Assembly (NCBI GenBank): GCA_041659225.1 | Contig: JBAZYR010000001.1 | Coordinates: 15,266 to 79,265 of the forward strand | Length of the DNA: 64,000 nt | Source of the DNA: Candidatus Staskawiczbacteria bacterium | GTDB taxonomy: Bacteria > Patescibacteriota > Minisyncoccia > Minisyncoccales > Staskawiczbacteraceae | Direction: 5' to 3' | Shown: piece after piece, positions 122 through 51,400 of the stretch | Layout of the letters: every line of letters starts with the position of its first letter | How positions within the stretch are numbered: the first letter of the stretch is position 1 | Made by a program: the position numbers and the translations under genes | The notes under the pieces: model-generated | The model's database searches: none | Told to the model about the DNA's origin: nothing | The model's input: only the letters and a program-made list of their open reading frames with translations

Positions 122-152
122 TAAAAAACGCCCACTTTCGGGCGTTTTGTTT
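122..152. terminator. Bidirectional intrinsic terminator downstream of the Cys-rich gene. A-run, then a CGCCC/GGGCG hairpin (aaaaaacgcccactttcgggcgttttgtt), then a T-run.
   Basis: GC stem of 5–7 bp, loop actttc, flanked by an A-tract and a T-tract. Sits immediately 3' of the minus-strand CDS ending at 293. Confidence 0.6.
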
Positions 153-292
153 ACTAAGCTCCCCTTGGTGGACACGTTTAGAACCTTGGACTGGAAAATA
201 ATGGAAGAGGAAATGTGTAAACTGGGTTTGCTTAAACAAAAAGACCCTGAATGTATTTCTCAGACAGGGCCCTTATTCGGAGCTTAAAGTGT

Positions 293-1081
293 CTACTGTT
301 TTCTTGTGTGCAATAATCGTGGAGGTGGCACTGTTTGCATCGCCGTCGCAAGCGATACTCTATGACTCTTCATATAATAGCGGACGTAAACCGCATCGGT
401 GTTGCATAACGGTTCGCCGTTGGGCCCCCTGTGTTTGCATTTCCCAATACGGTTGCACCACGGCATTGAACATTGCTCTGGCCCAGGAGCCGGAATGATC
501 CCTTTGATTGCTTCTTGTCCAAGCTCTTGCCAAGTGCGATGTCGATGCATGCCCCGTCGGCTTAAAACCTTAAGATATGTACGACATGTTCCGCAAGCGT
601 GAAGACGTTCGCCGATTTCGCTGTCCCCTGACGGGGTCACCGTATCTTTACACCACGGCATACAGCATTTCACGGGATTGGGCTTTTCTGGCTTCCATCC
701 CTTGGGCTTTAATCGGCTGTAAGCTTCCTGAAGCGAACACTCTTCTTTTTTGCTAAGTTCCCATGCAGCTTCGTAGCAGGTACGACAAACACGTAAAAGT
801 CCGATACGACGTAACAAGTTTGTCGATACGTTCTTCAGCAATATTCTTGTGCAACCTTCACGGGCGCAAATTGTCTTAATCCGTGGCAAAGGACGTCTCG
901 GAGCAGACACATTGTCTGTGAACATTTCCTTCATAGCCTTCCCGGCTTCCTTGGATCTTTGCCAAATATATTGGTAACAAGCTCTGCACAATTGGACATG
1001 GTTAATATGTCGCGGTTCTTTTCCTATCGATTTTGCAGTTGGCTTATTGCACCACGGAGCACCACAAATCTTGCTATCCAT
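293..1081 (-). CDS. Cysteine-rich protein with four tandem Cys4 zinc-ribbon-like repeats (C-x2-3-(W)C ... C-x2-C-Y/R). Function unknown.
   Basis: The ORF 293..1135 is trimmed to an ATG at 1079-1081, preceded by GGAGGT 7 nt upstream. Repeats: CGAPWC...LCRACY, CAREGC...VCRTCY, CCMPWC...ACGTCR, CSMPWC...CKHRG...LCNTD. Local GC is about 50 % against about 38 % around it, and the Arg codons are CGN-biased. Confidence 0.6.
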   Translation of the reverse strand: MDSKICGAPWCNKPTAKSIGKEPRHINHVQLCRACYQYIWQRSKEAGKAMKEMFTDNVSAPRRPLPRIKTICAREGCTRILLKNVSTNLLRRIGLLRVCRTCYEAAWELSKKEECSLQEAYSRLKPKGWKPEKPNPVKCCMPWCKDTVTPSGDSEIGERLHACGTCRTYLKVLSRRGMHRHRTWQELGQEAIKGIIPAPGPEQCSMPWCNRIGKCKHRGPNGEPLCNTDAVYVRYYMKSHRVSLATAMQTVPPPRLLHTRKQ

Positions 1082-1156
1082 TGAGGTTACCTCCTTCGCT
1101 ATTTGAGTGAATGAACTATACATAAGATACAACACAAAATAAATATTGTCAAACCA

Positions 1157-1186
1157 AAAGCCCGAGACTCATATCTCGGGCTTCGT
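1157..1186 (-). terminator. Intrinsic terminator 3' of tRNA-Asn (hairpin GCCCGAGA...TCTCGGGC followed by T-run on the minus strand)
   Basis: Inverted repeat gcccgagactcatatctcgggc; the minus-strand RNA then reads CUUUUGGUUU. Confidence 0.6.
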
Positions 1187-1189
1187 TAG

Positions 1190-1261
1190 CTCCGGTGGTC
1201 CGATTCGAACGGACAACCCACTCCTTAACAGGGAGTTGCGCTACCATTGCGCCACACCGGA
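1190..1261 (-). tRNA. tRNA-Asn (anticodon GTT), CCA not encoded
   Basis: Cloverleaf read on the minus strand. Acceptor TCCGGTG/CACCGGA, D-stem GCGC/GCGC, anticodon stem ACTCC/GGAGT with loop CTGTTAA, T-arm GTCCG-TTCGAAT-CGGAC. Confidence 0.8.
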
Positions 1262-1315
1262 ATGTGTTATGGTAATTTATACTGTAAGCTAATTCTCTCA
1301 ATTTTTCAAGAAATC

Positions 1316-2509
1316 TTAGTAGTCTTTCACCTTTTTCAAATCCTGATGCTTTCGAAGCTTCTCCAAAGCCTTGGCTTGTATTTGACGTATCCTCTCCCTA
1401 GTTACAGCAAATTCCGCTCCTGTTTCTTCAAGAGTGTGCATCACTCCATCGTCCAAGCCAAACCTCATAGCCAATATCTTTAACTCTCGGGCAGTAAGCT
1501 CGCTAGATATTTCTTTTAATCTGCTTTTCAACAGTCTCCTGGCGGCTTCAGTATTCGGAGCTATACTCTTGTCGTCTTTGATAAACTCAGCTAAGACACT
1601 TTCCTGTTTATTCTTATCTTCTCCAACTGGAGTTTCCAAAGAAACTACCTTCTGGGCAATCTTCCTGATGTGATGGACTTTTTCAACTTCTAACTCCATT
1701 TCAGCGGCAATCTCCTCAGGTAAAGGTTCGCGGCCCAATTCTTGCAGAAGATTCTGCCTTACTTTAGTATATTTTGAAATCGTTTCAATCATGTGTACCG
1801 GAATCCTGATTGTCCTTGCCTGGTCAGCTAAAGCGCGGGTGACTGACTGCCTTATCCACCAAGTAGCATAGGTAGAAAACTTATACCCCTTTCTCCAATC
1901 AAATTTCTTTACAGCTTTAAACAAACCTAAATTACCTTCTTGAATCAAATCTAACAAACTAAGGTTGGGGGATCTCCCAACGTATTTTTTAGCGATAGAA
2001 ACCACTAACCTGAGATTCGCTAAAGCTAACTTATTCTTAGCCTCTTCGTCCCCTTTTTCTATCCTCCTAGCCAATTCCTTTTCCTCTTTTGCGCTTAAAA
2101 AACTTACCTTTCCGATTTCCTTCAAATACATCTGGATAGGATCTATTTTCCCGGCGGCTAAGGGTTTTTTCTTTTTCTCTTTTTTCCCCGTCCTAACTTC
2201 AAGAAACTCCCTCGCCTCTTTTATCTCGATACCTCTTTCCTGCAAATTATCATAAATGCTTTCCAGCTGGCTAACATCTTTTTCAATATTAGGGAAGGCG
2301 TAAAGGATCTCTGAGGTAGTGACAAATCCGCGCTCCTGGCCTTTATGCAAAAAAGCCGCCATTTGCTCTGGAGAAATTATTGATCGCTTGCCTCTTTTTT
2401 TTACTTTCTTTGCTTTTTTCTTCCTTACAACTTTCCTAACCTTTTTTGTCTTTTTGCGTTTCTTGGCAACAATCTTTTTCTTTTTTAATATCTTTTTCTT
2501 TTTTTTCAT
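1316..2509 (-). CDS. rpoD: RNA polymerase primary sigma factor (sigma-70 family, RpoD) with a highly basic, lysine-rich N-terminal extension
   Basis: Regions 2–4 are conserved ([27 protein letters not shown], the region 4.2 [18 protein letters not shown]). The N-terminal ~45 aa are almost all K/R. It sits directly downstream of dnaG, the classic dnaG-rpoD arrangement. Confidence 0.9.
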
Positions 2510-6762: not shown

Positions 6763-7098
6763 TCAAACTCCTCGTTTAATTGCGGCTGCATAGTTAAAGG
6801 CGTAAAAATAGTCGTGCATATTTTTGTCGGTAGAGCCGTAGATATTATCAAAACAGAAATAGTCAGCCAGAACTTCCCTCAAGCGGCAGATTTCCTTCAA
6901 TCTTCTCTTATTTTTAGGGTCGATAATCGTCAAATCCAAAAGCTCTAACCCTCGCTCAAAAGCCATTTTGCTGAATTCTGAATTTTTCTCCCGCCAATTT
7001 ATCGTTCGCTCAACCTCGCTCCCGATGTTGGCCATTTGTTCGATAAAAGGCATATTAAACCACCTTCCGCCTGCCAGGTCTTTATGAATATACTTCAT
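6763..7098 (-). CDS. Hypothetical protein (111 aa), second gene of a two-gene module overlapping its upstream partner by 4 nt
   Basis: Intact ORF with no recognisable motifs. ATGA-type overlap with 7095..7436. Confidence 0.45.
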   Translation of the reverse strand: MKYIHKDLAGGRWFNMPFIEQMANIGSEVERTINWREKNSEFSKMAFERGLELLDLTIIDPKNKRRLKEICRLREVLADYFCFDNIYGSTDKNMHDYFYAFNYAAAIKRGV

Positions 7099-7436
7099 TT
7101 ATCAACTACTTTATTTACTATGGAGATTATTTTCTCACGTATTTCTTCCTTATCAATCCCTCGGGTTCTATTACCTAAGCTCGGCTTTAAATTAATCATA
7201 GAATCAAACTCAATAAATTTGTCTTTTCCAACCTCAGGGTAAATATTTATTCCCCAAAGATTATTCGGCTCAGAACCATTTTCGATTAAAAGTTGCTCCA
7301 AATCAACGTGTAATTCAGCATCAACTGCCACGATTTCTTTTTCAATATCAATCACCGCTTTTACAAAATTACCGAACATTCTTTCCGATAACTCTTTTAA
7401 CTCAGCGATTGTTATTTTATCGTTGATAATTTTCAT
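7095..7436 (-). CDS. Hypothetical protein (114 aa, from the internal ATG MKIINDKITIAELKEL...)
   Basis: The track ORF extends 17 codons upstream into the tRNA-Ser, so it is trimmed to the ATG at 7434-7436. Function unknown. Confidence 0.45.
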   Translation of the reverse strand: MKIINDKITIAELKELSERMFGNFVKAVIDIEKEIVAVDAELHVDLEQLLIENGSEPNNLWGINIYPEVGKDKFIEFDSMINLKPSLGNRTRGIDKEEIREKIISIVNKVVDK

Positions 7437-7441
7437 AGAAT

Positions 7442-7529
7442 TGGCGGAAGGGGTGGGATTCGAACCCACGAGACCCGTAAGGGCCACGGCTTTCCAAGCC
7501 GTTCCATTAAACCGCTCTGGTACCCTTCC
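7442..7529 (-). tRNA. tRNA-Ser (anticodon GGA), type II with long variable arm, CCA encoded
   Basis: Acceptor GGAAGGG/CCCTTCC, anticodon stem ACGGC/GCCGT with loop TTGGAAA, variable arm of about 16 nt, T-arm GTGGG-TTCGAAT-CCCAC, 3' GCCA. Confidence 0.8.
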
Positions 7530-7772
7530 TTACTTCACTAATCTTTTGAGTAGTTTTTCTTTTACGCTTTCTAGCTCCCACTGGTCCAAACTATCCTTCT
7601 GGTTATACCGAAGACTATTTATCTTCTCCTTTATTTCAAATTCCGTCAATCCGTCGACGAGTTCGCTCCCAAAAACCTTATCCAAATACTGCCTTTCTTC
7701 AGTTGAAATATTAGGCATAAAACGCAAGATCCGATTAAACTCATCTTTGTATATCCTTTTGGGGTCAACCAT
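7530..7772 (-). CDS. Hypothetical small protein (80 aa), charged and helical
   Basis: Intact ORF lying between htpX and tRNA-Ser. No recognisable domain. Confidence 0.4.
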   Translation of the reverse strand: MVDPKRIYKDEFNRILRFMPNISTEERQYLDKVFGSELVDGLTEFEIKEKINSLRYNQKDSLDQWELESVKEKLLKRLVK

Positions 7773-7775
7773 ATT

Positions 7776-8678
7776 TTACATTTTCATGCCCCGAAGCGCC
7801 CTTATTCTCTCTTCCACTGGCGGATGGGTCATGAACAGTTTTATTATCCAATTGCTTGTTTGTTTGCCCTTGAACGGGGAAGCAATGAAAAGGTGGCTGG
7901 TCGCGTTATTAGCAACGCGCATAGGCGTTGTATCGCTGGATATTTTCTCTAAAGCCCTGGCTAATCCATCGGGATACCGGGTCAAAAGCGCGCCGTCAGC
8001 ATCAGCCAAAAACTCTCTCTTCCTGGAAATTGCCAGCTGGATTAAAGTTGCAGCTATCGGAGCTAAAATTGCAGCAACGATTCCTACAATCGCCAATATC
8101 CCGGCCATTTTACTATCTTCTGAATTACGCCTGCCACCGCCGAAATAGCTGATCCGTAAAAAGAAATCAGAGGACATGGCAATAATGCCTGCCAAAATCG
8201 TGACAACTGTCGCCAAAAGCATATCCCGATTGCCAATGTGAGACAATTCGTGGGCAATGACCCCTTCCAGCTCTATTTTCTCTAATCTATTCAGCAACCC
8301 CCTAGTGACAACAACCACTGCGTGTTTCTTATCTCTGCCCGTAGCAAAAGCATTCGGCTGGTTCTCCTCGATAATATATATCCTGGGCATGGGCAAGCCG
8401 GCTGTGATGCAAAGGTTCTCAACGACCAAATAAAGCTCGGGATTATCCTTCTTTTCAATCGGATTGGCCCTTGTCATTGCCAAAACAATCTTATCTGAAT
8501 ACCAATAGCTGCCAAAACTCATTAAAAAACTGAAGAATACGGCAAAGTACAGAATGCTCGGATTATTCAGCGAATAACTGAAAATCCATCCGATTAGAAT
8601 TACGAAAACCAAAAACCCGGCTATTAATAGCCAAGTTTTGCGGATATTGGAATCAGCTTGAGTATATAGCGTTGCCAT
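7776..8678 (-). CDS. htpX: HtpX-like M48 zinc metalloprotease (membrane)
   Basis: HELSHIGNRD zinc motif, four TM segments, and a downstream glutamate in GALLTRYPDGLARALEKI. Confidence 0.85.
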   Translation of the reverse strand: MATLYTQADSNIRKTWLLIAGFLVFVILIGWIFSYSLNNPSILYFAVFFSFLMSFGSYWYSDKIVLAMTRANPIEKKDNPELYLVVENLCITAGLPMPRIYIIEENQPNAFATGRDKKHAVVVVTRGLLNRLEKIELEGVIAHELSHIGNRDMLLATVVTILAGIIAMSSDFFLRISYFGGGRRNSEDSKMAGILAIVGIVAAILAPIAATLIQLAISRKREFLADADGALLTRYPDGLARALEKISSDTTPMRVANNATSHLFIASPFKGKQTSNWIIKLFMTHPPVEERIRALRGMKM

Positions 8679-8679
8679 T

Positions 8680-9234
8680 TTAGAATTTCACCTTCACAGG
8701 CTCCTTCTCTTTTGCTTCTGCTATTTCAAACAAATCCATTTGTTTGAAAGCAAATATTGAGGCAATGATGTTCGATGGGAAAACTTCTATTTGAGTATTC
8801 AGTTCCATAACGTTTGAGTTATAGAAGCGTCTAGCTGCCTGGATCTTGTCTTCAGTGTCGGACAGCTCTCTTTGAAGTTCTAGAAAATTAACTGATGCCT
8901 TCAAATCCGGATAATTTTCTGATACTGCGAACAGACTCTTTAAAGTGTCTGAAAGAAAGTTTTCGGCTTTAGCTTTTTCCTGGGTTCCTTGCGCTCCCAT
9001 AGCTGTTGCTCTTGCTTGGGTTACTTTTTCCAATAATTCCCTCTCGTGGGTAGCGTAACCTTTGACTGTCTCGACTAAATTAGGTATCAAGTCATACCTT
9101 CTTTTCAACTGGACATCAATGTCAGCCCATGCTTCCTTGGTCCTGTTGCGAAGCCTTATTAGGCCGTTGTAGCCTAGGATTACCCATCCAAGGACAATCA
9201 CTACGATGGCTATAATTATATATGTGATACTCAT
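8680..9234 (-). CDS. lemA: LemA family protein
   Basis: N-terminal TM helix followed by the LemA block GYNGLIRLRNRTKEAWADIDVQLKRRYDLIPNLVETVKGYATHERE. The lemA-htpX pairing is conserved. Confidence 0.85.
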   Translation of the reverse strand: MSITYIIIAIVVIVLGWVILGYNGLIRLRNRTKEAWADIDVQLKRRYDLIPNLVETVKGYATHERELLEKVTQARATAMGAQGTQEKAKAENFLSDTLKSLFAVSENYPDLKASVNFLELQRELSDTEDKIQAARRFYNSNVMELNTQIEVFPSNIIASIFAFKQMDLFEIAEAKEKEPVKVKF

Positions 9235-9259
9235 TTTTTTTATATATATTATCTGTTGT

Positions 9260-9277
9260 TATACTGCAAGCAGTATA
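9260..9277. promoter_or_regulatory. Perfect 8-2-8 palindrome TATACTGC-AA-GCAGTATA in the lemA-htpX upstream region; candidate operator
   Basis: An exact inverted repeat seen directly in the sequence. There is no T-run after it on either strand, so it is unlikely to be a terminator. Confidence 0.35.
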
Positions 9278-9300
9278 GCGAACAAATAATACAATATTTA

Positions 9301-9840
9301 TTAAGGTATCGGCAGCATTCCTTTGATTACTATTGTTAAAAAAGGATGCTGAATAGAAAACTTGTGATGGAACAGTTTAAGAATCGTTGCAAAATCCAAA
9401 AGCTCTTCCCTCAAGCTTTCCGGGCCGGAAAACACTTCCCAAAACTCCTGATTAATATTTTTGGAAAGATTGTATAAAATTTCGTAGTCGGATTTCTCCT
9501 TCAAGTATTTTATTATCCCCTTAAATTCTGCTTTGTCCAGCCAAATTCCTTCGCATAAGTTGCACAGATCAACCGTGACCTGGGAATTATCATATCTCAC
9601 TTCGTAAAGCGGCATCCTGCAGTGCGGACAAAGACGGCCGCTGCGTGAAAGAACAAACTTCTTTTGATCCTTCCATAAATCAATATCCAGCCAATTCAAA
9701 TTCTTATCTCTTTCGTCTTTAGCTTGCCTTAATTCATCCTTATCAAACCAAAGCCCGAGACACTCTTTGCAATGGTCAACTTCGACATTTAACAAAATTA
9801 CTTTTTCTAATGTTTCTTTTTCACAACTAGGACACTTCAT
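9301..9840 (-). CDS. Tandem zinc-ribbon (zf-TFIIB-like) domain protein
   Basis: Two repeats of CPxC-x15-20-C-x2-C-x-G-x-W-F/L-D-K-x-E: MKCPSCEKE...HCKECLGLWFDKDEL and CPHCRMP...CNLCEGIWLDKAEF. Confidence 0.6.
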   Translation of the reverse strand: MKCPSCEKETLEKVILLNVEVDHCKECLGLWFDKDELRQAKDERDKNLNWLDIDLWKDQKKFVLSRSGRLCPHCRMPLYEVRYDNSQVTVDLCNLCEGIWLDKAEFKGIIKYLKEKSDYEILYNLSKNINQEFWEVFSGPESLREELLDFATILKLFHHKFSIQHPFLTIVIKGMLPIP

Positions 9841-9877
9841 AAAACTACCGCTTCTTAATATTTATACCTTATTCTAA

Positions 9878-9916
9878 CCAAAAACCCTTCCCTATACAAT
9901 AGAAAGAAGGGTTTTG
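9878..9916 (-). terminator. Intrinsic terminator 3' of groEL (AACCCTTC...GAAGGGTT hairpin, bidirectional A/T tracts)
   Basis: 8-bp stem and 15-nt loop. The minus-strand RNA is followed by UUUUGGUU. Confidence 0.6.
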
Positions 9917-9927
9917 GTCAAGAATAT

Positions 9928-11852
<1,925 letters not shown>

Positions 11853-11934
11853 ATGTTTTTATCACTTAAGTTATTTAATTGCTAATTTTACATTCTAGAA
11901 AAATATGGGGAAATGTCAATAGATTGGAAATAAA

Positions 11935-11965
11935 AACCACCCGGCAATACAGCATATAGGTGGTT
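11935..11965 (-). terminator. Intrinsic terminator after the small membrane-protein gene and before the groES promoter
   Basis: AACCACC...GGTGGTT hairpin, then UUUUUAUUUCC on the minus-strand RNA. Confidence 0.55.
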
Positions 11966-11975
11966 AAATTATTTC

Positions 11976-12350
11976 TTAGTACCCCACCTTGTTGATAAGC
12001 ATCTCTAGTAAATTCTTTACCTCCGCCTGCGCTTGTTCTTCAGTCGCAGAATCGATAAACCTCTGCCACTGGTCAAGCAACGCCTTATTATTTATTTCCC
12101 GTATAGCATTTTCTAACTGTAATCTATCCTCAAAAGAAACTTCCCCCTGCGCCTTTAAAACCTTTGTTACGAATAATCTTGTGAAGGTTAACACCTTCGC
12201 ATTATACTGATAACTCTTGAGGCTCGCTTTCGCGGCCTGGAAATCGATACAAGACGTATAGTATTGCATCAGAACAAAAACCATGGAAATCACCAGCACA
12301 ATAATGATTGAAAGATATACTTTTTCTTTTGTCGTAGAGCCTTTAAACAT
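11976..12350 (-). CDS. Hypothetical small membrane protein (one TM), probably co-transcribed with the giant surface protein
   Basis: The ORF starts 2 nt after the giant gene's stop. Hydrophobic segment LSIIIVLVISMVFVLM. Confidence 0.45.
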   Translation of the reverse strand: MFKGSTTKEKVYLSIIIVLVISMVFVLMQYYTSCIDFQAAKASLKSYQYNAKVLTFTRLFVTKVLKAQGEVSFEDRLQLENAIREINNKALLDQWQRFIDSATEEQAQAEVKNLLEMLINKVGY

Positions 12351-12351
12351 T

Positions 12352-15300
12352 TTATTTTGTCTTAGCCTGTATCCTTTCTCTTATCGTATCACGATAAAAG
12401 TTCAGGAGCAACAGAACTAAAATTAAGAGTAATAAAAGAACTTTCCAGTCAAAATATTTTGCAAACCAATCATTTCGCAAAAGCTCGATATTCTCGTGCA
12501 TCTCTACGCCGTTTTTAATCTCGAACTCTCCGCTATAGTAGGCGACATATCCGGAAGCTTCAACTTTGATATAATAGCTGCCTTCAGGAACCAGAAAGGC
12601 ATACCTGCCGGTAACGTCTGTTGTTTGCGGATTAGATTGCTGATATTGTTTCGCCGGCCATAGCTCGTACAGTTTCGTTTCAGGATTCAGCCAATACAGG
12701 GTAACCTTAGCGTTGTTAACTCGAATCTGGCCTTCCGAACTCTGAGCGTAAATATAACCTTCGGGGTCAACAACAGTGATAAGGCGGATTTCTTTTGACT
12801 CTACATTTATGTCTTTATAATTAATTGTAGTGACTATCTCATATTCGCCCATTGCCACAGGAGCAAATATTCCCGCGGTCCAAATTCCGTCCCTATCGTT
12901 ATCCTGATAATTGAATTCCTGCAAAAGTAAAATATTATTTATATCTTCCTGCACCTGGCTTGATATTAAAGAGGCGGCTAAATACTGCGGAAACGGGTTA
13001 GAGGAGAATCCCGCTTGTTTTAAAGCAAGATATCCTTTTACTCCCTGAACTGGTTTATCGGGCTTAACAATTAATTGAAGAGATTTTCCAGAAAGCATCT
13101 TTATCTTTTGCTGCAATTCTCCCTGCGCGTTAACATAAAGGCTGACGTTTTGATCTACAAGGCCGTTGCTGGTTCGGGCGAAAATAACTTCGGTTGGTAT
13201 TTTTGCTTTTGCCAATACTGTTAATTTATCCAAGGGAATCCCCTGCGGGAGAGCAAGCTTCCCTGTCCCTATATCAGCTATCGGCAAACTCGTTGTTTCA
13301 GCCAGTCCAGGCAACACTAGGTTCACCCCTACCAACTTACCCATATCTGATATCCTTAAAATATCTATTTCTTTAAAGGTTTTCCCTAATGAAGGTATTT
13401 TCTGAGCGAGGTCGCTGAACTCTTTCGGTATAGGACCTAAAACAAACTTTCCGAAAGACTTTGCAGGGAAGATGTTCCATTTATTTCGCATGGAACTTGG
13501 CGCTTCTTCCATAACGATTTCTTCAGCAGGCGGCAAATCTAATTTTGGTTCTTCTTTCGGCCCGATAATTTCTTCAATTATTGTTCCTACTCCATCAATA
13601 ATCTCCCCGGGTATTTTCACCACCTCTTTAACCGCTTCTACCGGAGCTTCAACTATTTGCTGTACAACTTTTTTCCTCCCTAAATTAATCGTGTCAGAAA
13701 CAACTCCTGACGGCTGGCCCCAAGAATTGAAAAACTTAACATAAACTGTTTTTACGCCTTCTCCGTCAGAAAGCTTCCAGATTTTAGCATCCTGGTAAGA
13801 TTCTTGAACAGAATTTGTAAAGGCAGAATCGTTGGCGATAGCCATCCTCACGGTATCTGATCCAGCATTCAAGATCAGAGTGACTTCTTCATTTTCAGTA
13901 CTGGAATCTCCGTTGTTGATTAAAACTGAGAATCCACCGGTTGGAGCAGACGGCGGGGCATAGGCGCCGCCTGGAAGTCCGCCGCCGCCACAAGAAGAGG
14001 TTGTCGCGCTTACAGTATCTGAAAAATCTGTATCTACCGCATCTCCATTTCTCGCTTTCACTCTGAAACTGTAGCTTGTACCGCAAGAAAGCCCGGAATT
14101 TATCCAGAAACTTGCTGTTGTCCAGCCAGAATTGGTGGAGTTGGTTGTATTCTCGACGTAATATTCCGTACCTGATGCATTGGAGTTTGCGCTCCATGAA
14201 ACAGTAATCTGTGCAGCAGAGTCTACGGCTGCATCCGTGCTTGCCGGTGCATTGGCTAAAGTATATTTAGACGAAGTAGATGAATAGTCGGTAGTAACAT
14301 CGTCTCCGTTTTTCGCATTGATCGATACAGTATATTGCGTATTGGGCACCAAACCACTGACTGTTAAAGGCGAAACCCAAACAGATTTAGTTTGGTAAAC
14401 TGGAGAAACTCCCAGTGTACCATTAGCTTGAACATATTGAGAACCAACTTTAACTGAGAAAGTGGCGGCCGAGGAATTGCTGTTCTCATTGATAACCACA
14501 CCTAGAGTTGTTGAGTTGCTTGCGGTAAGCGTGGGAGTTGAAGGCGTATTAGCCAAAGTATATTTTGAAGATATTGAGGAATAATCAGATACATTGCCGG
14601 CTGCGTCTCTAGCTCTTACCTCGTATGCGTACAGCGTACTCGGATTTAATCCAGTATCAGTAAAAGAGGTTGTAGCCTGCCATCCGCTGGAAGAAGCTCC
14701 GGGATTGCCCGTTGTTTCAGCCACGTAATATGGCGTATCATCCAAACCTGACCCAGTATCAGTAGCGGCAGAGAATACTACTAATTGCGTGCTTGAAGTG
14801 GCCGTGATAGAGGAAATATCTGCGCCGGCCGGGGCAGTGGCATCAACCACGAAAGGAGAATCACCCTGTGAAGAAGAAGAACACATAGACAAGGCGTTAT
14901 AATCGCAAACAAATGCATACCACTCCTTACTCCCTTCATCTCCGGCAACGGTCGTATGATCGCAGAAAGCCACAGAGCCAGAATCAATCGAAGAGGATAC
15001 GCACCAATTTCCACCGCCGCACGTTGGAGCGCCTAAATTATTCGCGGTGATTGAATTTGTTTTACATACCGCCAAATAGTAGTCATCGGATTCTCCGTCA
15101 ATAGCCGTAGCCGTAAAAGATACGTCGTCCCCTACTTTTGTCTGGGAAGCAGCGGATGAACCGCCGTCGGACGGAGCCACAGAAATTGAAGGGGCGCTAT
15201 TAAAACTCCAATTTAAATTATGACCGTCAGCACCAATAGTATTGGTGAAAGTAACCGCGTTCCCGCTGGAAGCATCAGAGTCTGTTACCTGCACATAGTT

Positions 15301-18300
15301 GATGGCAAAAGTGCCGTTGGCTGTCAGTGTCCAATAAGTGCCGGGTTCGTCAGAAACAAGATTAATGCGATCGTTATCATCAATACCGGCTAGAGTAAAT
15401 AGTCCATTAATAGTTTGGGTACCGGTATGGTCGAAAGTTAATGTTAAATCCGTGGAATTATCATCAGCGTCTGTTTTACTGAAATTATGGAAAATGGTGG
15501 AGCCGGAGATTGACTGGTTTCCTCCGGCAAAAGTGACTGTCCCGGTTCTTGGATTGAATGTTCCGCTATTTATCCAGTTACCAGTCAGCGCAATGTTATA
15601 TGAGTTTCCGCTCCCTATATCCAACGTAGCGCCAGTGTTGATTGTTAAATTCCCGTTCACGGCTAAGGCACCGGCAGCAGTATAGGTTGTAGCCCCAGCA
15701 GGCGTCAGAGTCAAATTGTTATACGTAGTTGCCGCAATATTCGCAGTCGTGCCGGTATATATGACAGTAGAGGAAGCAACCGTGAAAGTGTTGTTGTTGG
15801 TTAAAATAGTGCCGATTCCCGTTAAAGTCAATGTATCTCCTGTAATATCAAAAGTATCGTCTGCTCCTATCGTTAAAGCAGTCAGTTTTGTATTGGTAGA
15901 AGTAGAAACCGAAGTAGTGGTGGACGGTCCGATAGTGATGGTTCCTAGGTCCTGTCCCGAGGTGGAATCAGTTATTACCTGGGTAGTTCCGTCAAATGTT
16001 AATGTCCCGCCGGCGGTGAAAGTAGCATTGGAAGTTAATTCAAAATCTCCGGCAACATTTAAATTATTTGCATTTTGAGTGAATAAACCAGATTGCAGGT
16101 AGAACTTACCATCCACTTCTAAGGCGTTACCTAAAGAAAATGCGGCTTTGGTAGCGTTTTCGTCGTCAATAGTAAGATTAAAATAATCAGGAGAACTAAA
16201 ATCCTTAATAGTTATAGGATCAGCAGCATTGTTGCCGTAATAAATAACTGTTCCGGCTGCGGTGCCTAAGTTGTTAACACTAGTCAGTGTTTCTGTGCCT
16301 TTCAGCTTAAAATTGCCGGAATTAGCCACAGCAGCAGCGGAGCTGAAAGTTAAGTTTTTCCCACCAAGATCAAAACTCGTTGAGGCGTCTATTGTCAGAG
16401 AAGTAGCGGTAAGTGCAGAACCTAATGTAACAGCTGTTGACGCAGTTGATATTTGTACTGCACCGAAATCATCTGAGCTTGGAGTGAAGGTTTGGGCAGA
16501 ACCCTTACTGAATTTAATGGTTCCCGTTCCTTTTGTGAATGTGGCGCCAGTGAAATTAGCAGATCCATTGAAAGTAACACTTGCGGCTGACCCACCACCC
16601 GCAGCGCTCAGAAAGCCTTCAACAACCGCGTCTCCAGATACGACAGTGGCAGTGGCATTTGTTGAAGCATAAAATTCTCCGATATAAGAGTCTGCGCCTC
16701 CGGTCGGACCGATGTTAAAAGGGCCGGAGAATATATGCACGCCGCTGGGAATTGAAGAAGAAGCTCCGAACCCACCATTGCAAATAAAGGAACCGCCGAT
16801 AGTAACTGGCCGAGCACCTGGAGAAAAATATGCACCAGAATCTATCGTCAGATTCCCGCTGGTGGCAAAACTACTTAACACAAATAAAGATACGGCGTTA
16901 TAATTTGTTAGGGGCTTCATTATAACGTCATCGAAGACTACGGCCGGCGATGACACGACAAGTCTGCCGGTCTGGTTTATCACAACAGTAGATCCTACCG
17001 CGTCCACTACGCCTGTTGTATAACTAATAACAGCAGTAGTTGGTAGATTGGCGCCAACATTTATAATTTCGCGAAGATGTAAAGTGGTGTCGGCAGTTTT
17101 TGCAATTCTTATATACGGCAACAGACCCTGACCCTCTGTTCCGGCTGCGCCACCGGTAAGAGTTTGCTCACCGCTCCCATTTATATTCAAATAACCAGTT
17201 GGAAATCCAGAACCACCAGGCCACGCGTAAGTATTTGTTACTGTGATATCTCCCTGAGCGTTGAGGCCAGTAGTGGCGCCGACAATCTTTAACCAATTCG
17301 CCCCTCCGCTGAATAATAATAGTCCGCTAACGTTTTGCGTCGTGCCCGTTAGCGTATAGGTGGTAGGATCAGCAGTGGGATTAAACGTCAAATTGTTAAA
17401 AGTAGTATTGCCTGTAAAACTCATGGTTGTGGTCAGCACAACCGTTGAGGTTGCTGCAGTAAAAGTACCGCTGTTAGACCAAACACCATTAACCGTGAGC
17501 GTATGACTAGTTCCGTCTTCTGTCAAAATACCGCCTGAGTCAATGGTTACTGAGGCCACCGTGCTATCAACATCAAGGGTAATCGTATGGCCGTTCATAA
17601 TTTCTACTGTGTCCGCTGTCTGAGGTATCGTACTATTACAGTTCGTCCAGGAACCGGCAGCGCTCCAGTTGCCCGTAACGGCGTTACTCTGGCAGGCGTA
17701 GGAAGGATCAACGATATAGTCGATATCAATATTTCCGATAATCTTTAAATCAAAAACATCTGTAGGCGTTTGCAGATTAGTAAGATATACCGTGTAAGTA
17801 TTTTCTTGGTCGATACTTTCGAAAGTGGTGATAAGTTGGTCACTGTTTTCTGCGTATACTTCTATAATCGCAGCTTGACCCGGGATTGTTGCTTTAGCAT
17901 ACAAAGTGATATCCCTTGTGTTATCTAGTATATTTTCAAAGGTTACTCGTACGTACTGACTGTTCTCTAAAGCTACCCAGCTATTGTCCTGTGTTTGGAC
18001 TTGTTCGTAAATATCTTCAAGAATATTTCTGTCTTGGTCCAGCCTGAAAGCCTTAGAGATGAAAATAATTTCGAATATTTGGTCTGACAGGTGAGGAACT
18101 GTCCACTCTACGTAATCAAGCTTTCCGTCATTATCTAAATCGTATGCATTAAATTGCACGTCTTGATTCCCATTGTTTTGCCATTTTATTTTTATCTTGC
18201 TCTCTTCTCCGACTTTAAATATTTCAGGTATTGTAGTAAAAGCCAAAACATTGGTGTATTGCTGTTCTTGCTCGGGAGACGAAACTGTTACCAACTTCCC

Positions 18301-19218
18301 CTCTTCTGTATCTTGTTCGGTAATTTCCGGCGCTGGAGTTTCATATTCAATTTGTACGTATTCGCTTTGCTCCTCTGGCGGAGTTACCACGGCTTGAGGG
18401 TCGGCAGGCTCTACATCTGGCAGGTCTACGACCTGCTGATCCGATGGAGATGCTGTTTCTAGAATATCGCCTTCTTCTACAATCGGCAGGATATCAGGCA
18501 CATCTTCGATAATTTGTTCAGGAACTTGTTCTTCAACAACCTGCTCTTGAACTGGAACTGGCTGCTCAATAACTTGGTCTGACAAATCAACGAAACTTGC
18601 CTCGTCTGTCCGAATAATGTCCTCCTCTTCTGGCTCAGTCATAATCTCAGTTATCGCATCGGTGATTTGCTCTGCGGAGTCAAGAATATTAGCTAATAAA
18701 TAAGAATAGGGATCATCTGGTAAAAAACTCTCGGCTGACCTAATGCCAACAAATTTCTTCCTCTCGTCATTTGATAAATATTGCACGGGTTTTAAGGATA
18801 ATATCTGACGCACCTGGCTGTCATCAACAGATTTTACCTTTATATTCCCTGCTTCTTTGGGCAATTGAATCAAATACTTACCTTGGTCCAAGGAACTACG
18901 TTTAACCAAAACCACCCATTTGACTGATTGGCCCACAATTGTAGCCGAAACCTTCCTGGCAATCGTATCAGTTACTATCACAGAGTCAGTAATCTGTTTC
19001 GGAAATTTCGGCAAGATGTTTACGGAAAGATTGAAGAAAAAGAAAACAATAATTAATACAATCGCGCCTTGTACAAGGAAATATGGCCTAGCAGAAAAAG
19101 TGAGGTCTTTTCGGGAAAAGGTCAGTTCTTTGCCTGCGCAATTACGCAAAAAACCTTTACAACGCGCAATGTACTTTTTAAATAGCTTATTCCAGGAAAA
19201 CATTTGGTACTCTAGCAA
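12352..19218 (-). CDS. Giant (2288 aa) membrane-anchored surface protein. It has an acidic N-terminal region, T/G/S-rich beta-helix-like repeats, fibronectin type-III (FN3) domains, a carboxypeptidase-regulatory-like domain and a C-terminal TM anchor.
   Basis: Hydrophobic segments at both termini (FLVQGAIVLIIVFFFF; WKVLLLLLILVLLLL). FN3-like units (YYVAETTGNPGASSSGWQATTSFTDTGLNPSTLYAYEVRARD; TEYYVENTT...SYSFRVKARNG). The motif PEGSYYIKVEASGYVAYYSGEFEI is transthyretin/CarbopepD_reg-like. Confidence 0.75.
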   Translation of the reverse strand: MLEYQMFSWNKLFKKYIARCKGFLRNCAGKELTFSRKDLTFSARPYFLVQGAIVLIIVFFFFNLSVNILPKFPKQITDSVIVTDTIARKVSATIVGQSVKWVVLVKRSSLDQGKYLIQLPKEAGNIKVKSVDDSQVRQILSLKPVQYLSNDERKKFVGIRSAESFLPDDPYSYLLANILDSAEQITDAITEIMTEPEEEDIIRTDEASFVDLSDQVIEQPVPVQEQVVEEQVPEQIIEDVPDILPIVEEGDILETASPSDQQVVDLPDVEPADPQAVVTPPEEQSEYVQIEYETPAPEITEQDTEEGKLVTVSSPEQEQQYTNVLAFTTIPEIFKVGEESKIKIKWQNNGNQDVQFNAYDLDNDGKLDYVEWTVPHLSDQIFEIIFISKAFRLDQDRNILEDIYEQVQTQDNSWVALENSQYVRVTFENILDNTRDITLYAKATIPGQAAIIEVYAENSDQLITTFESIDQENTYTVYLTNLQTPTDVFDLKIIGNIDIDYIVDPSYACQSNAVTGNWSAAGSWTNCNSTIPQTADTVEIMNGHTITLDVDSTVASVTIDSGGILTEDGTSHTLTVNGVWSNSGTFTAATSTVVLTTTMSFTGNTTFNNLTFNPTADPTTYTLTGTTQNVSGLLLFSGGANWLKIVGATTGLNAQGDITVTNTYAWPGGSGFPTGYLNINGSGEQTLTGGAAGTEGQGLLPYIRIAKTADTTLHLREIINVGANLPTTAVISYTTGVVDAVGSTVVINQTGRLVVSSPAVVFDDVIMKPLTNYNAVSLFVLSSFATSGNLTIDSGAYFSPGARPVTIGGSFICNGGFGASSSIPSGVHIFSGPFNIGPTGGADSYIGEFYASTNATATVVSGDAVVEGFLSAAGGGSAASVTFNGSANFTGATFTKGTGTIKFSKGSAQTFTPSSDDFGAVQISTASTAVTLGSALTATSLTIDASTSFDLGGKNLTFSSAAAVANSGNFKLKGTETLTSVNNLGTAAGTVIYYGNNAADPITIKDFSSPDYFNLTIDDENATKAAFSLGNALEVDGKFYLQSGLFTQNANNLNVAGDFELTSNATFTAGGTLTFDGTTQVITDSTSGQDLGTITIGPSTTTSVSTSTNTKLTALTIGADDTFDITGDTLTLTGIGTILTNNNTFTVASSTVIYTGTTANIAATTYNNLTLTPAGATTYTAAGALAVNGNLTINTGATLDIGSGNSYNIALTGNWINSGTFNPRTGTVTFAGGNQSISGSTIFHNFSKTDADDNSTDLTLTFDHTGTQTINGLFTLAGIDDNDRINLVSDEPGTYWTLTANGTFAINYVQVTDSDASSGNAVTFTNTIGADGHNLNWSFNSAPSISVAPSDGGSSAASQTKVGDDVSFTATAIDGESDDYYLAVCKTNSITANNLGAPTCGGGNWCVSSSIDSGSVAFCDHTTVAGDEGSKEWYAFVCDYNALSMCSSSSQGDSPFVVDATAPAGADISSITATSSTQLVVFSAATDTGSGLDDTPYYVAETTGNPGASSSGWQATTSFTDTGLNPSTLYAYEVRARDAAGNVSDYSSISSKYTLANTPSTPTLTASNSTTLGVVINENSNSSAATFSVKVGSQYVQANGTLGVSPVYQTKSVWVSPLTVSGLVPNTQYTVSINAKNGDDVTTDYSSTSSKYTLANAPASTDAAVDSAAQITVSWSANSNASGTEYYVENTTNSTNSGWTTASFWINSGLSCGTSYSFRVKARNGDAVDTDFSDTVSATTSSCGGGGLPGGAYAPPSAPTGGFSVLINNGDSSTENEEVTLILNAGSDTVRMAIANDSAFTNSVQESYQDAKIWKLSDGEGVKTVYVKFFNSWGQPSGVVSDTINLGRKKVVQQIVEAPVEAVKEVVKIPGEIIDGVGTIIEEIIGPKEEPKLDLPPAEEIVMEEAPSSMRNKWNIFPAKSFGKFVLGPIPKEFSDLAQKIPSLGKTFKEIDILRISDMGKLVGVNLVLPGLAETTSLPIADIGTGKLALPQGIPLDKLTVLAKAKIPTEVIFARTSNGLVDQNVSLYVNAQGELQQKIKMLSGKSLQLIVKPDKPVQGVKGYLALKQAGFSSNPFPQYLAASLISSQVQEDINNILLLQEFNYQDNDRDGIWTAGIFAPVAMGEYEIVTTINYKDINVESKEIRLITVVDPEGYIYAQSSEGQIRVNNAKVTLYWLNPETKLYELWPAKQYQQSNPQTTDVTGRYAFLVPEGSYYIKVEASGYVAYYSGEFEIKNGVEMHENIELLRNDWFAKYFDWKVLLLLLILVLLLLNFYRDTIRERIQAKTK

Positions 19219-48431: not shown

Positions 48432-51400
48432 CTATAGCCCGACGACAAACCCGAAGGGAAAATTAGGAATAATCCCATTGCAGGCACATATCGGGACGAA
48501 ATAGAAATCATCGGCATCGTAACCAATGGAACAATCACGCCACATTGGAGACACAGCAGATGCGCACGCGTACCAGCCATAACCATACCAATACCCGGCA
48601 ACAGGAGAACCATATTCCCCGGAGTCAAAGATGCACTCGTCACAAGCTATTCCGAAGTGCGCAATTGCACTGCAATTTAAATCTTCTTCACTGCAATCGG
48701 CTGTTTTATTTCCACCCTTATCAGAGCATACACCTGCACATGACTGTCCCCTGTTTCCCAAATACCAGCAATTGCCCCCAGAAGAGAATCCAGTACATTC
48801 AGTTGCAGTTGATATTTCCACAGTGTACAGATGGCCATAAGTTATCACCAACGAAGGCAAAAGACTTATCGTGCTGCTGGGAGCGCAAGTTGCAGCTGTT
48901 AAAGTTTTTTCCCTCAAGACCGTTGTTCCTTCTTTAAGAGTAATTTTTGTTCCGACTGGAAGACAATAGGGCGATCCGTTATCAGTTGCGCTGTCTACCT
49001 TTATCCGGAAAATGCTGTCAATACTCGCCCCAGGCGCTGGCGTGTTAGATATAGTGACAGTCGAACAAATAGTTTTTTGTCCCTGAGTTGCGCACTTGGA
49101 AGGTTTGGCTTTTATTGTCCCCGTTACTTCTGACGGAGCTATCCTTTGAGCGGGTTCCCCAGCAAAAACTGCTTTTAGCACAAGGTTGCCGAAGCTGGTA
49201 TTAGTCAAACCATTTTCAATAAAACTACGGGTTTTCATGGTGTTGATATCGCTAGGAAGTTCAGCATATGTTGCAGCCATTGCTGAAGGCAGATTAGAAA
49301 GACGGAAAGTATTCCAGCCACCCCCCGGAGGCTGGAACCAAAGAAGTGCAACCGCATTACCGGCATCATGCTCGTGCCTTACTATTAATCTATGCGGGCC
49401 TTTGGCTAAATAAACGGTTCCGCTATGGCTGTAGCAAGAGCAATAAGTATTTTCCCCATAAATTCCTGCTAATACAGATCCGTCTATTTCGACCTCCATG
49501 GCATCTTCTCCATCAACCGCAAAACCCCATGTGCCTTGCCCTGCATCGGTAATGTCCAGGATAGTGGAGAAATATAAATTGGAGTTGGCTGGGAAAGTAC
49601 CGAAGCTATTTTCGCCTATGTCGGTAATCAAACTCCTAGATATTAAATTTGAAGGGACATAATCATTAATCAATCCTGCGTGATCAGTGGGATGGCCAAC
49701 CGTCCCGCCATACTCTGCAAAAAGCACCTTGTTGATATTATCTATCGCGAGATAATTCTTGGGAACGTATGTTACGTGGGCTTCACCTGCAGAGCTCGTA
49801 GTTGAGGAGCCGATATTAAAGATATCGCTTTGGTTAACGAAAGTCACGATTTTATTAACCATTGCAGCTCCTGCGCCGTCTTTGAGAACAGCCGAAAGTA
49901 TGGATGATACCACACCATCTATATTAAGTGTGCTGGGAGTAACAGTGAACTGCTCGAGTATTGTCGGGGTCCCGCCTGATACCGCCACTGTTGCGGTCGA
50001 ACTTTCGGCAGGTAGAAGCGGAATTGCAAAGCCTTCATCTCCCGCATAGGTTGCCTTTAATGAAACGTTCCCGATACTAGTATTCTCGATTCCCTTTTTT
50101 ATAAAATTAAGATTCTTGATAACTGAATCGCCTAATAACTCTGCATATATTGAAGCCGCCCCGCTTCCCAAGCTAATACCACCAAAAACCTTCCACGAAC
50201 CATCTGCCGGAGACTTATAATAAAGAACAGCTGCCTCGTTCCCCGTTACATTTTGATGGCGTACAGTCACCCGATGAATTCCCGCTGACAATGTAATGGT
50301 GTTCGAGTGACTAGTACACGAACAAGTGGAATGTTGATACCAGCCGACTACGATATTGTCATCTATCTGAAGCTCTACCGCATCGTCGCCATCAACTGCA
50401 AACTGCCAGGACCCGGGTATGTGAACATCCATGATAGTAGTGAAGAAATAATTAGTATTATCTTGTGGGGGCACTACGCCTTCAAAAAGATCTATGGCAT
50501 CCCTCGTACCTTTATCCAATACAGTGGTATATGTATAGTCATTTATCAATGCGTTATGATCTGCAGGGTTCCCTGTATCGCCTGCATATTTCACATAGAG
50601 TATTTTCCCTCGGTTGGCATCTGATATGTAATGCTTGACTAAATAACTCAGACTGGCAACACCCGAGCCGTTAGTGACTGCCGAACCCATGTCGTTATTA
50701 TCGGTAACATTAAAAAAAGACACAGGTTGGCCGCTTATCAGGTTCCCATTTTGATACTTAAGGGTAGCTGAAAGATTTATTGGGTCGTCGATATAGGTTT
50801 CAATCGGAACAGTAAATGGATTTATTAGCGGACGCTGTCCTATAATAATTTCTAAGGGGGCTGTTGTTTCAGAGGGTGATATCCGAAGACTACTATTTCC
50901 GGCATAACTTGCCTTCAAGGTATGCGCCCCGAGATTCAAGATTGAAGAGTCCAAACCAGAAGCTATAAAACCAGGGGCTGTCAATTCAGAATCCGGTAAT
51001 AGTTTTGCATAGAGTTTCGCCTTTGTTCCTAGATTGGTACTAAAAAAATAAAATGAGGCATCTGTCGGGGATTTATAATAAAGGATCACGTCATTACCAC
51101 CAGTATCATTTTCGTGCCTCACAACCAGTCTATGCAGGCCTGCTGTCAGGTTTACCGATCCTGTATGTGTAAAACATGCGCAGCGACCATGATAACCATA
51201 CCAACCGACTACTACTGCCCCATCTATTTCTAACTCTACGCCATCATCGCCATCAATCGCGAAACTCCAAACACCAGCCTCCTTAACATCCATAATAGTC
51301 GTAAAATAATAGTTCTGATAGTTATTAGCTGTTGGACTTTCTATCCTTATTTCTGTCCTCAGCGCTTTTTCTATAAGAGAGGAATATTGATAATCTGCCA

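Follow-up and report, generated by a model that had tools for sequence, protein, structure and literature searches.

What kind of protein is encoded by the cysteine-rich gene that lies beside tRNA-Asn near the start of a 64,000-nucleotide (nt) stretch of a Candidatus Staskawiczbacteria genome (contig JBAZYR010000001.1, positions 15,266 to 79,265; hereafter the window), and did this gene arrive there by recent horizontal transfer? The original prediction, made from the sequence, had described a GC-rich islet encoding a four-repeat zinc-ribbon protein that was possibly phage or plasmid derived. Our answer to the first question, given with a little less than even confidence, is that the gene encodes an accessory, independently transcribed, basic protein built of four treble-clef zinc modules that bind nucleic acid, likely a regulator or a nucleoid-associated protein. 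It represents a very rare and so far uncharacterised version of a fold class that is itself known, and it belongs to no named family. As to the second question, the accessory gene has moved between genomes over evolutionary time, as follows from the variable region in which it lies after tRNA-Asn and from the patchy distribution of its family, and a recent acquisition is not demonstrable.

The open reading frame (ORF) of 262 amino acids (aa) runs on the minus strand from an ATG at 1081 to a stop codon at 293-295, and the same protein sequence occurs, under the label hypothetical, as P0001 in a metagenome-assembled genome (MAG) of Candidatus Staskawiczbacteria. The gene and its signals are as follows, in window coordinates.

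293-1081, minus strand: coding sequence of the four-module putative zinc-finger protein, supported by the identical protein P0001 and by orthologues that align over the full length at 41-59% identity
1090-1094, minus strand: Shine-Dalgarno sequence GGAGG, 8 nt 5' of the ATG, read from the sequence
1124-1152, minus strand: promoter-like site, TTGACA, a 17-nt spacer and TATCTT, with 10/12 matches
1189-1261, minus strand: tRNA-Asn (GTT), found by ARAGORN and Rfam (67 bits)
1151-1192, minus strand: terminator hairpin of the tRNA-Asn, followed by UUUUGGUUUG (-23.9 kcal/mol, z -4.4)
230-283, minus strand: hairpin and U-run directly 3' of the stop codon, the first terminator-like element (-18.2 kcal/mol, z -1.95)
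125-148, minus strand: canonical intrinsic terminator with a 10-bp stem, a GAAA loop and a U-run, which could fold on either strand

The ORF is a real, stand-alone gene: with a ribosome-binding site, a promoter-like site and terminators on both sides, it forms a self-contained transcription unit. The tRNA-Asn (GTT) lies 107 nt upstream on the same strand, and U-run hairpins are found on either side of the ORF, both as originally predicted. A scan of the flanks for noncoding RNAs with Rfam returned nothing beyond this tRNA except an insignificant Phe_leader match.

The protein is made of four homologous modules of ~66 aa, with a spacing of 65-67 residues from the first Cys of one module to the first Cys of the next, and it is strongly basic (isoelectric point 9.7, net charge +27) and carries 18 Cys. 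The homology of the modules was tested by profile-profile comparison of orthologue sub-alignments in hhalign, in which R1 and R2 were linked at 98% probability (E 4e-14), R1 and R4 at 96%, R3 and R4 at 95% and R2 and R4 at 94%, while R3 was weakly linked to R1 (44%) and to R2 (2%). No paralogue of the module was found in the other ORFs of the window or in the fetched loci.

908-1075, minus strand: module R1, residues 3-58, C6-x4-C11 … C32-x2-C35-Y-x3-W (alignment, hhalign, AlphaFold)
704-877, minus strand: module R2, residues 69-126, C72-x4-C77 … RRIG … C99-x2-C102-Y-x3-W (alignment, hhalign)
506-676, minus strand: module R3, residues 136-192, C139-x4-C144 … C163-x2-C166, the most divergent of the four (alignment, hhalign)
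323-481, minus strand: module R4, residues 201-253, C204-x4-C209 … C226-x2-D229, with Asp at the putative fourth ligand position (alignment)
296-331, minus strand: conserved C-terminal peptide VPPPRLLHTRKQ, residues 251-262 (11-sequence alignment; low predicted local distance difference test score, pLDDT)

Among orthologues at 41-59% identity the putative ligand Cys are invariant or nearly so, and so the four tandem repeats of the original prediction stand as homologous units, but not all as Cys4 sites, since R4 reads C-x4-C…C-x2-D in register. At this fourth position most members have Asp, and a few retain Cys (C-x2-C), so that, as far as the alignment can tell, the ligand set is three Cys4 plus one Cys3Asp rather than four Cys4. 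Also conserved are an 'RR-x-IG' motif before the R2 hairpin, Y and W on the main helix, and the Pro-rich linkers PPKRPLPRI and LKPKGW. The C-terminal sequence PPPRLLHTR(G/K)(R/Q) is kept in most of the 11 aligned four-module orthologues, with P252, P254, R255 and R260 invariant; it lies outside the zinc modules and matches no identified motif.

The fold was approached by structure prediction. AlphaFold gave a pLDDT of 85 and a predicted template-modelling score (pTM) of 0.44 for the full-length protein, a combination which indicates confidently modelled modules in a flexible mutual arrangement, and a pLDDT of 83 and a pTM of 0.66 for a single module (R2, with an alignment of 85 modules). In the full model, DSSP assigned strands at residues 24-26 and 29-31 and helices at 33-46 and 50-55 to R1; in the single module it assigned strands at 23-25 and 28-30 and a helix at 32-45. 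The single module, R1 and R2 show the same order of elements, namely a knuckle, a β-hairpin, a long helix starting at the C-x2-C and a short second helix; R3 and R4 of the full model have the helices, and the hairpin only in part. In the single module, the ligand positions fall at C4/C9 in the knuckle and at C31/C34 at the start of the helix (residue 32). A treble clef is defined by a knuckle, a loop, a primary β-hairpin and an α-helix, with ligands contributed by the knuckle and by the N-terminus of the helix (PMC4999995). The predicted element order and ligand positions match this definition, which points to a treble-clef topology for the modules, with a zinc site whose geometry we infer. 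A significant structural superposition on a solved treble clef was not obtained with Foldseek for either the full model or the single module against the PDB.

Does the protein belong to a family that already has a name? Whole-protein scans of Pfam, NCBIfam, PHROGs, PADLOC and PDB sequences gave nothing at curated thresholds, and the PADLOC models of anti-phage defence gave no match at E ≤ 0.01; the original prediction had not recognised the repeat as a named family, and no Pfam, NCBIfam, PADLOC or PDB family was matched here. A match to NCBIfam adh_fam_2 was rejected as noise (21.6 bits vs a cutoff of 283.5). The one PHROGs match, at E 3e-5 and 24.8 bits, was to phrog_20235, a function-less family of 51 positions without a Pfam counterpart. 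This family and the short Cys-rich Pfam family DUF4428 match weakly over the hairpin-CxxC-helix part; DUF4428 is matched by 9 of 53 family members (best E 1.8e-5; one member checked scored 13.8 bits vs a cutoff of 27.8) and does not match the 262-aa protein. Both families lack an assigned function and are uninformative on mechanism, and PHROGs come without a curated cutoff.

The closest resemblance is to GATA fingers, which are the best sub-threshold match both by sequence and by fold. Searched against PDB sequences, the 85-module profile found the fingers of GATA-3, GATA-1, GATA-2 and AreA at E 0.007-0.07 (best domain E 0.014), with an HMMER alignment that pairs the second knuckle Cys, the 'RR', the 'G-x-P-V-C-x-x-C' stretch and the helix. 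The top Foldseek match of the full model in the PDB was the tandem GATA3 DNA-binding domain, which at E 0.26 is not significant. The third module of one orthologue (P0011) reached 25.5 bits on Pfam GATA (PF00320), whose gathering threshold is 26.8; across the family such matches were obtained for 1 of 53 proteins and 2 of 85 modules, all sub-threshold, and Pfam GATA gave no match to the 262-aa protein at E ≤ 10. The likeness extends to a Cys4 site whose ligands come in pairs, one pair from a knuckle and one from a C-x2-C at the start of the helix, to the basic 'RR' on the hairpin and the 'G-x-P-V-C-x-x-C' stretch, and to a basic segment after the finger and a tandem occurrence. However, the knuckle is C-x4-C here and C-x2-C in GATA, and all four modules read C-x4-C-x18-21-C-x2-C/D, whereas GATA reads C-x2-C-x17-18-C-x2-C. 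The modules of the present family also have an extra C-terminal helix and a length of ~55-66 aa, as compared to ~36 for GATA, and the family is bacterial, with 2-5 modules, and is not known to have a WGATAR-type site. By sequence, GATA fingers thus appear to be the nearest known relatives, all below threshold, and the protein falls outside GATA on both threshold and knuckle spacing. That the family might be a true bacterial homologue of GATA-type fingers, poly-zinc-finger regulators of 2-5 modules that bind DNA sequence-specifically over long sites, is an extension to which we attach a low probability.

Two further comparisons are with larger groups. The treble-clef fold group (Grishin; Kaur & Subramanian 2016, PMC4999995) shares the predicted order of elements and origin of ligands with the modules, but it is a fold group and not a family, and its consensus knuckle, CPXCG, is shorter than the knuckle seen here. 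Eukaryotic tandem C2H2 arrays such as those of YY1, ZIC3, WT1 and ZNF410 resemble the protein in their beads-on-a-string build with conserved linkers, and the R2 knuckle 'C-x-x-x-G-C-g-k' recalls the C-x4-C knuckle of C2H2 fingers. The resemblance to YY1, ZIC3 and WT1 is restricted to this knuckle; for YY1, the E-value of 1e-5 adds up short matches to it, and no single domain does better than E 0.13. The second pair of ligands here would be Cys-Cys at the N-terminus of a helix, ~20 residues on, whereas in C2H2 fingers it is His-x3-His at the C-terminus of the helix.

How might such a protein work? Each module may hold one Zn2+, with two ligands from the C-x4-C knuckle and two from the C-x2-C (or, in R4, the C-x2-D) with which the main helix begins. 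The binding surface would be formed by the exposed face of that helix (Y/Q/W/K/R) together with conserved basic residues of the hairpin ahead of it (the 'RR-x-IG' motif), and the Pro/Lys/Arg-rich linkers would set the constant 65-67-residue spacing. With this spacing, the array would recognise a long site on a nucleic acid, which is most likely double-stranded DNA, in the manner of tandem GATA or C2H2 fingers, and the role of the protein would be that of a transcription regulator or a nucleoid-associated protein, with the conserved C-terminal peptide perhaps docking a partner. Zinc binding, nucleic-acid binding, a preference for DNA over RNA and a regulatory role are all things we infer. The originally predicted Cys-rich, multi-module protein that binds nucleic acid or metal is supported to this extent, with zinc as the presumable metal.

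Several observations weigh against the proposal of a DNA-binding regulator. Treble-clef modules are also used to bind other proteins, RNA and lipids (PMC4999995), and no sequence or structure match to any DNA-binding family reaches significance; for the single module, Foldseek found nothing significant in the PDB (E > 2). All source names of the family members, which come from Staskawiczbacteria, Pacebacteria and Paceibacterota MAGs, read 'hypothetical protein'. There is no conserved operon partner across the genomic contexts, and no operator-like motif shared upstream of the homologues, in which the -35-like TTGACAA is the sole recurring element (of 10 loci examined, 6, among them the window locus, have it ≤200 nt ahead of the gene).

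The same features can be read in other ways. The modules could instead sit on structured RNA, rRNA or tRNA, in an RNA-binding or ribosome-associated zinc protein, an alternative we regard as unlikely. The very high positive charge would suit it, one two-repeat homologue is encoded near nusG/secE/rpmG, and sub-threshold matches were seen to S14 type Z (E 0.04), to L40e (3 of 53 members) and, in the weak Foldseek list, to archaeal ribosomal chains. However, none of the ribosomal-protein matches is significant, a family this rare could hardly have a core role in translation, and no consistent linkage to ribosomal or RNA-processing genes is seen. Somewhat less probable still is a function as a scaffold between proteins, in redox chemistry or in zinc buffering, such as that of a LIM/RING-like adaptor, a thiol switch or a zinc store. 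LIM, RING, IBR and FYVE domains are among the weak matches, 18 Cys would serve such functions, and the C-terminal PPPRLLHTR resembles a docking motif; but these domain matches are all insignificant, no conserved partner gene lies nearby, and the +27 charge, the basic hairpin residues and the basic linkers better suit a polyanionic ligand. An array of His-Me (HNH-like) nucleases, degenerate or active, is conceivable since His-Me fingers belong to the treble clefs (PMC4999995), and phage HNH endonucleases occur in the weak BFVD list at E 0.04-1, while one of the 85 repeat units matches HNH_5 at E 0.05. The family alignment makes this very improbable: among the 11 sequences there is no invariant His, Asn, Asp or Glu able to form a nuclease site, the His before the R2 CxxC is Arg in the 262-aa protein, the helix has neither a conserved Asn nor a conserved metal-binding acidic residue, and no HNH Pfam family matches at threshold.

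How widespread is the family to which this DNA-binding candidate belongs? An exhaustive HMMER search of 1.84 billion representatives returned 47 proteins, of which 44 remained at E ≤ 1e-10 after the removal of three false positives, and together with word-index matches the family comes to about 50 sequences. The rejected candidates (P0054-P0056) included two highly repetitive sequences and one with repeats of WRKYGQK, a motif typical of plant WRKY proteins. Members have two to five modules, with lengths of ~130 aa for two and ~260 aa for four; the five-module form comes from a Bdellovibrionota MAG. The family was found in 2 of 185,579 species-representative genomes and at three loci in the metagenomes of the Joint Genome Institute (JGI); it is a tiny unnamed family, mostly in ultra-small Paceibacterota bacteria of the Candidate Phyla Radiation (CPR). 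No relatives were found in INPHARED phages or PLSDB plasmids (tblastn, E ≤ 1), nor in IMG/VR by a pattern scan. The nine independent genomic contexts have no neighbour in common, and in each of them the gene stands by itself; members are never in synteny, and their distribution is extremely patchy.

Some observations on individual homologues may be recorded here. The contig of the orthologue P0006 (CAYXJO010000002.1; L001/L007) bears the title 'uncultured Gammaproteobacteria bacterium', but one of its genes gives a faint match to DUF5671, a domain which we take to be associated with CPR bacteria. The called start of P0006 appears truncated, an in-frame ATGGATAAAATCTGCGGAGCG (MDKICGA…) lying upstream. 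Beside a four-module homologue in another locus (L013), two ORFs at 301-963 and 2016-2696 look LAGLIDADG-like by eye (…LAVWYMDDG / LAVWFMDDG…).

Is the gene a recent arrival? The possibility that it is a phage- or plasmid-derived gene, recently acquired and integrated at tRNA-Asn, is one that we consider improbable, and the evidence on it is of two kinds, compositional and positional. With regard to composition, the gene is indeed richer in GC than its surroundings, but the values are 48.4% for the gene and 41.5% for the window, and not ~50% against ~38% as originally estimated; for the 46 other long ORFs the mean is 41.3 ± 2.3%, which puts the gene at z = 3.1. The excess is located at the second codon position (GC2 0.50 vs ~0.36), while GC at the third position (GC3) is 0.46 vs 0.41 ± 0.04, which at z = 1.3 is no outlier. 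In six loci with flanks of 39-52% GC, the homologues all lie 2-9 points above their own flanks, with GC2 at 0.48-0.54. The location of the excess at the second codon position and its recurrence throughout the family therefore make it a matter of amino-acid composition and not a signature of foreign DNA: it is an effect of richness in Cys, Arg, Pro, Gly, Ala and Trp, and the GC islet loses its value as evidence of foreign origin. The predicted bias in Arg codons is real and speaks for acquisition, CGN making up 18 of the 25 Arg codons in the gene vs 278 of 791 elsewhere (Fisher p = 4e-4), with CGT used 9 times vs 2.0 expected. A check of GC and codon usage along the window thus confirms atypical Arg codons, but it leaves GC3 ordinary, and the atypicality of the gene in synonymous codons (z = -3.3) is shared by two other ORFs of the 47 scored, one of which is the gene for IMP cyclohydrolase.

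With regard to position, the identical protein is also encoded on a 785-kb contig, L003, which gives 10 kb beyond the start of the window (window position = 11082 minus L003 position). Integrases or recombinases, excisionases and transposases were all absent from these 10 kb. The next genes are four AT-rich genes, then a stand-alone threonyl-tRNA synthetase (ThrRS) editing domain of archaeal type (137 aa, PF08915, E 6e-23), then a methyltransferase. The AT-rich block (L003 11141-14304) has 35% GC and a GC3 of 0.28-0.34, vs 41% GC in the core, and encodes two membrane proteins, one of 83 aa and one, sulfatase-like, of 511 aa, together with two unknowns. Beyond it, outside the window at L003 15570-15620, lies the distal copy of a direct repeat of ~50 nt, whose proximal copy overlaps the end of the tRNA.

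1140-1191, minus strand: proximal copy of the ~50-nt direct repeat, which takes in the final 3 nt of the tRNA together with its terminator and the TTGACA box

The two copies lie 5.68 kb apart and are identical at about 44 of 50 nt. A direct repeat of the tRNA 3' end is what the integration of an acquired element would leave, and the examination of the upstream sequence that had been proposed for an integrase or attachment-site repeats has yielded the repeat, but no integrase, either in the 10 kb or between the two copies. The repeat could be an attachment (att) scar or a duplicated terminator-promoter cassette. Against acquisition, the copies differ at about 6 of 50 positions, the candidate anticodon-arm remnant before the distal copy (12/14 nt) is weak, 22 of 2000 shuffles scoring as well, which is marginal, and the rest of the inter-repeat segment is AT-rich (35%), unlike the zinc-finger gene. 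The gene flanking the distal copy is an ORFan. No other copy of the hairpin motif of the repeat was found in the window, and a DNA pattern scan did not find the repeat motif in the JGI metagenomes.

Comparison with the four closest relatives (L009-L012; RpoD 85-89% identical, DnaG 57-71% identical) shows that the junction itself is variable. Synteny is kept through dnaG-rpoD, most fully upstream in L010 (GroEL…LemA-M48…SIMPL-HIT…DnaG-RpoD), and is then broken, with different genes after rpoD in each case.

L009, after rpoD: Xre, DUF5655, an N6/N4 methyltransferase and a helicase; no recombinase
L010, after rpoD: large serine recombinase at 11410-13071, then an HTH_17 protein, an N6/N4 methyltransferase and a ResIII helicase
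L011, after rpoD: SWIB and a glycosyltransferase
L012, after rpoD: large serine recombinase at 11874-13370

The recombinases of L010 and L012 carry Resolvase and Recombinase domains, and the gene in L010 overlaps the 3' half of tRNA-Asn. Of the zinc-finger gene and the 13 genes that follow it, none of the 14 was found by tblastn in the four relatives, which lack the segment and carry other cargo at the site, and which are too diverged (DnaG 57-71%) for an empty site to be recognised. The rpoD-tRNA-Asn junction is thus a variable region, a point at which synteny breaks and an integration site in relatives, and it looks like an integration hotspot in the lineage. The predicted hotspot at the tRNA is supported, two relatives having a large serine recombinase and two having methyltransferase/helicase modules after rpoD, and orthologues in syntenic position, which the original prediction had named as evidence to the contrary, are found in none of the four. 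The synteny break and the serine recombinases in relatives support the reading of the gene as an accessory gene in a variable region.

Recent acquisition is thus favoured by the variable region with its recombinases, the direct repeat, the Arg codons, the patchiness of the family (2/185,579 species representatives) and the match to phrog_20235 at E 3e-5. The proposal of a recent origin from a phage or plasmid is nevertheless not upheld: besides the missing integrase, excisionase and transposase and the absence of relatives in INPHARED, PLSDB and IMG/VR, a Foldseek search of BFVD with the full model gave no significant match, the best having E 0.02 and a probability of 0.12. Neither recency nor an origin in a phage or plasmid is thus supported. 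As a description of the locus the original prediction holds for the most part, save for the numbers and the fourth site, but its argument for transfer rested on the wrong evidence, that of GC content.

Some side observations concern the neighbouring genes and the rest of the window. The ORF of the primary sigma factor RpoD (1316-2509, minus strand) has an N-terminal tail of ~45 residues (2380-2509), almost all Lys/Arg, ahead of region 1.1. The DnaG ORF of the window is 620 aa long, or 605 aa in the gene call of the public contig; in the relative L010, a DnaG of 1000 aa (6996-9998) has weak Hint_2 and Intein_splicing matches, which suggests an intein-containing primase. Two very large ORFs of 2288 and 1257 aa, at 12352-19218 and 48432-52205 on the minus strand, have a raised GC2 of 0.45-0.46.

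What does this locus mean for the biology of these organisms? A practical caution is that a local GC peak over a gene rich in Cys, Arg and Pro reflects amino-acid composition and is no evidence of horizontal transfer. The rpoD-tRNA-Asn junction emerges as a variable region which holds serine recombinases in two Staskawiczbacteria-like relatives. Tandem zinc-finger arrays are the dominant DNA-reading device of eukaryotes and are unusual in bacteria, and the Paceibacterota have few recognisable regulators. The gene studied here belongs to an undescribed and very rare bacterial family with 2-5 predicted treble-clef modules, mainly in Paceibacterota, which could represent a new type of regulator or nucleoid protein in reduced genomes and possibly a relative of GATA fingers. 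If it were a true GATA homologue, a finger type considered eukaryotic would gain either a root in bacteria or a lateral link, and a new modular scaffold for DNA recognition would be added.

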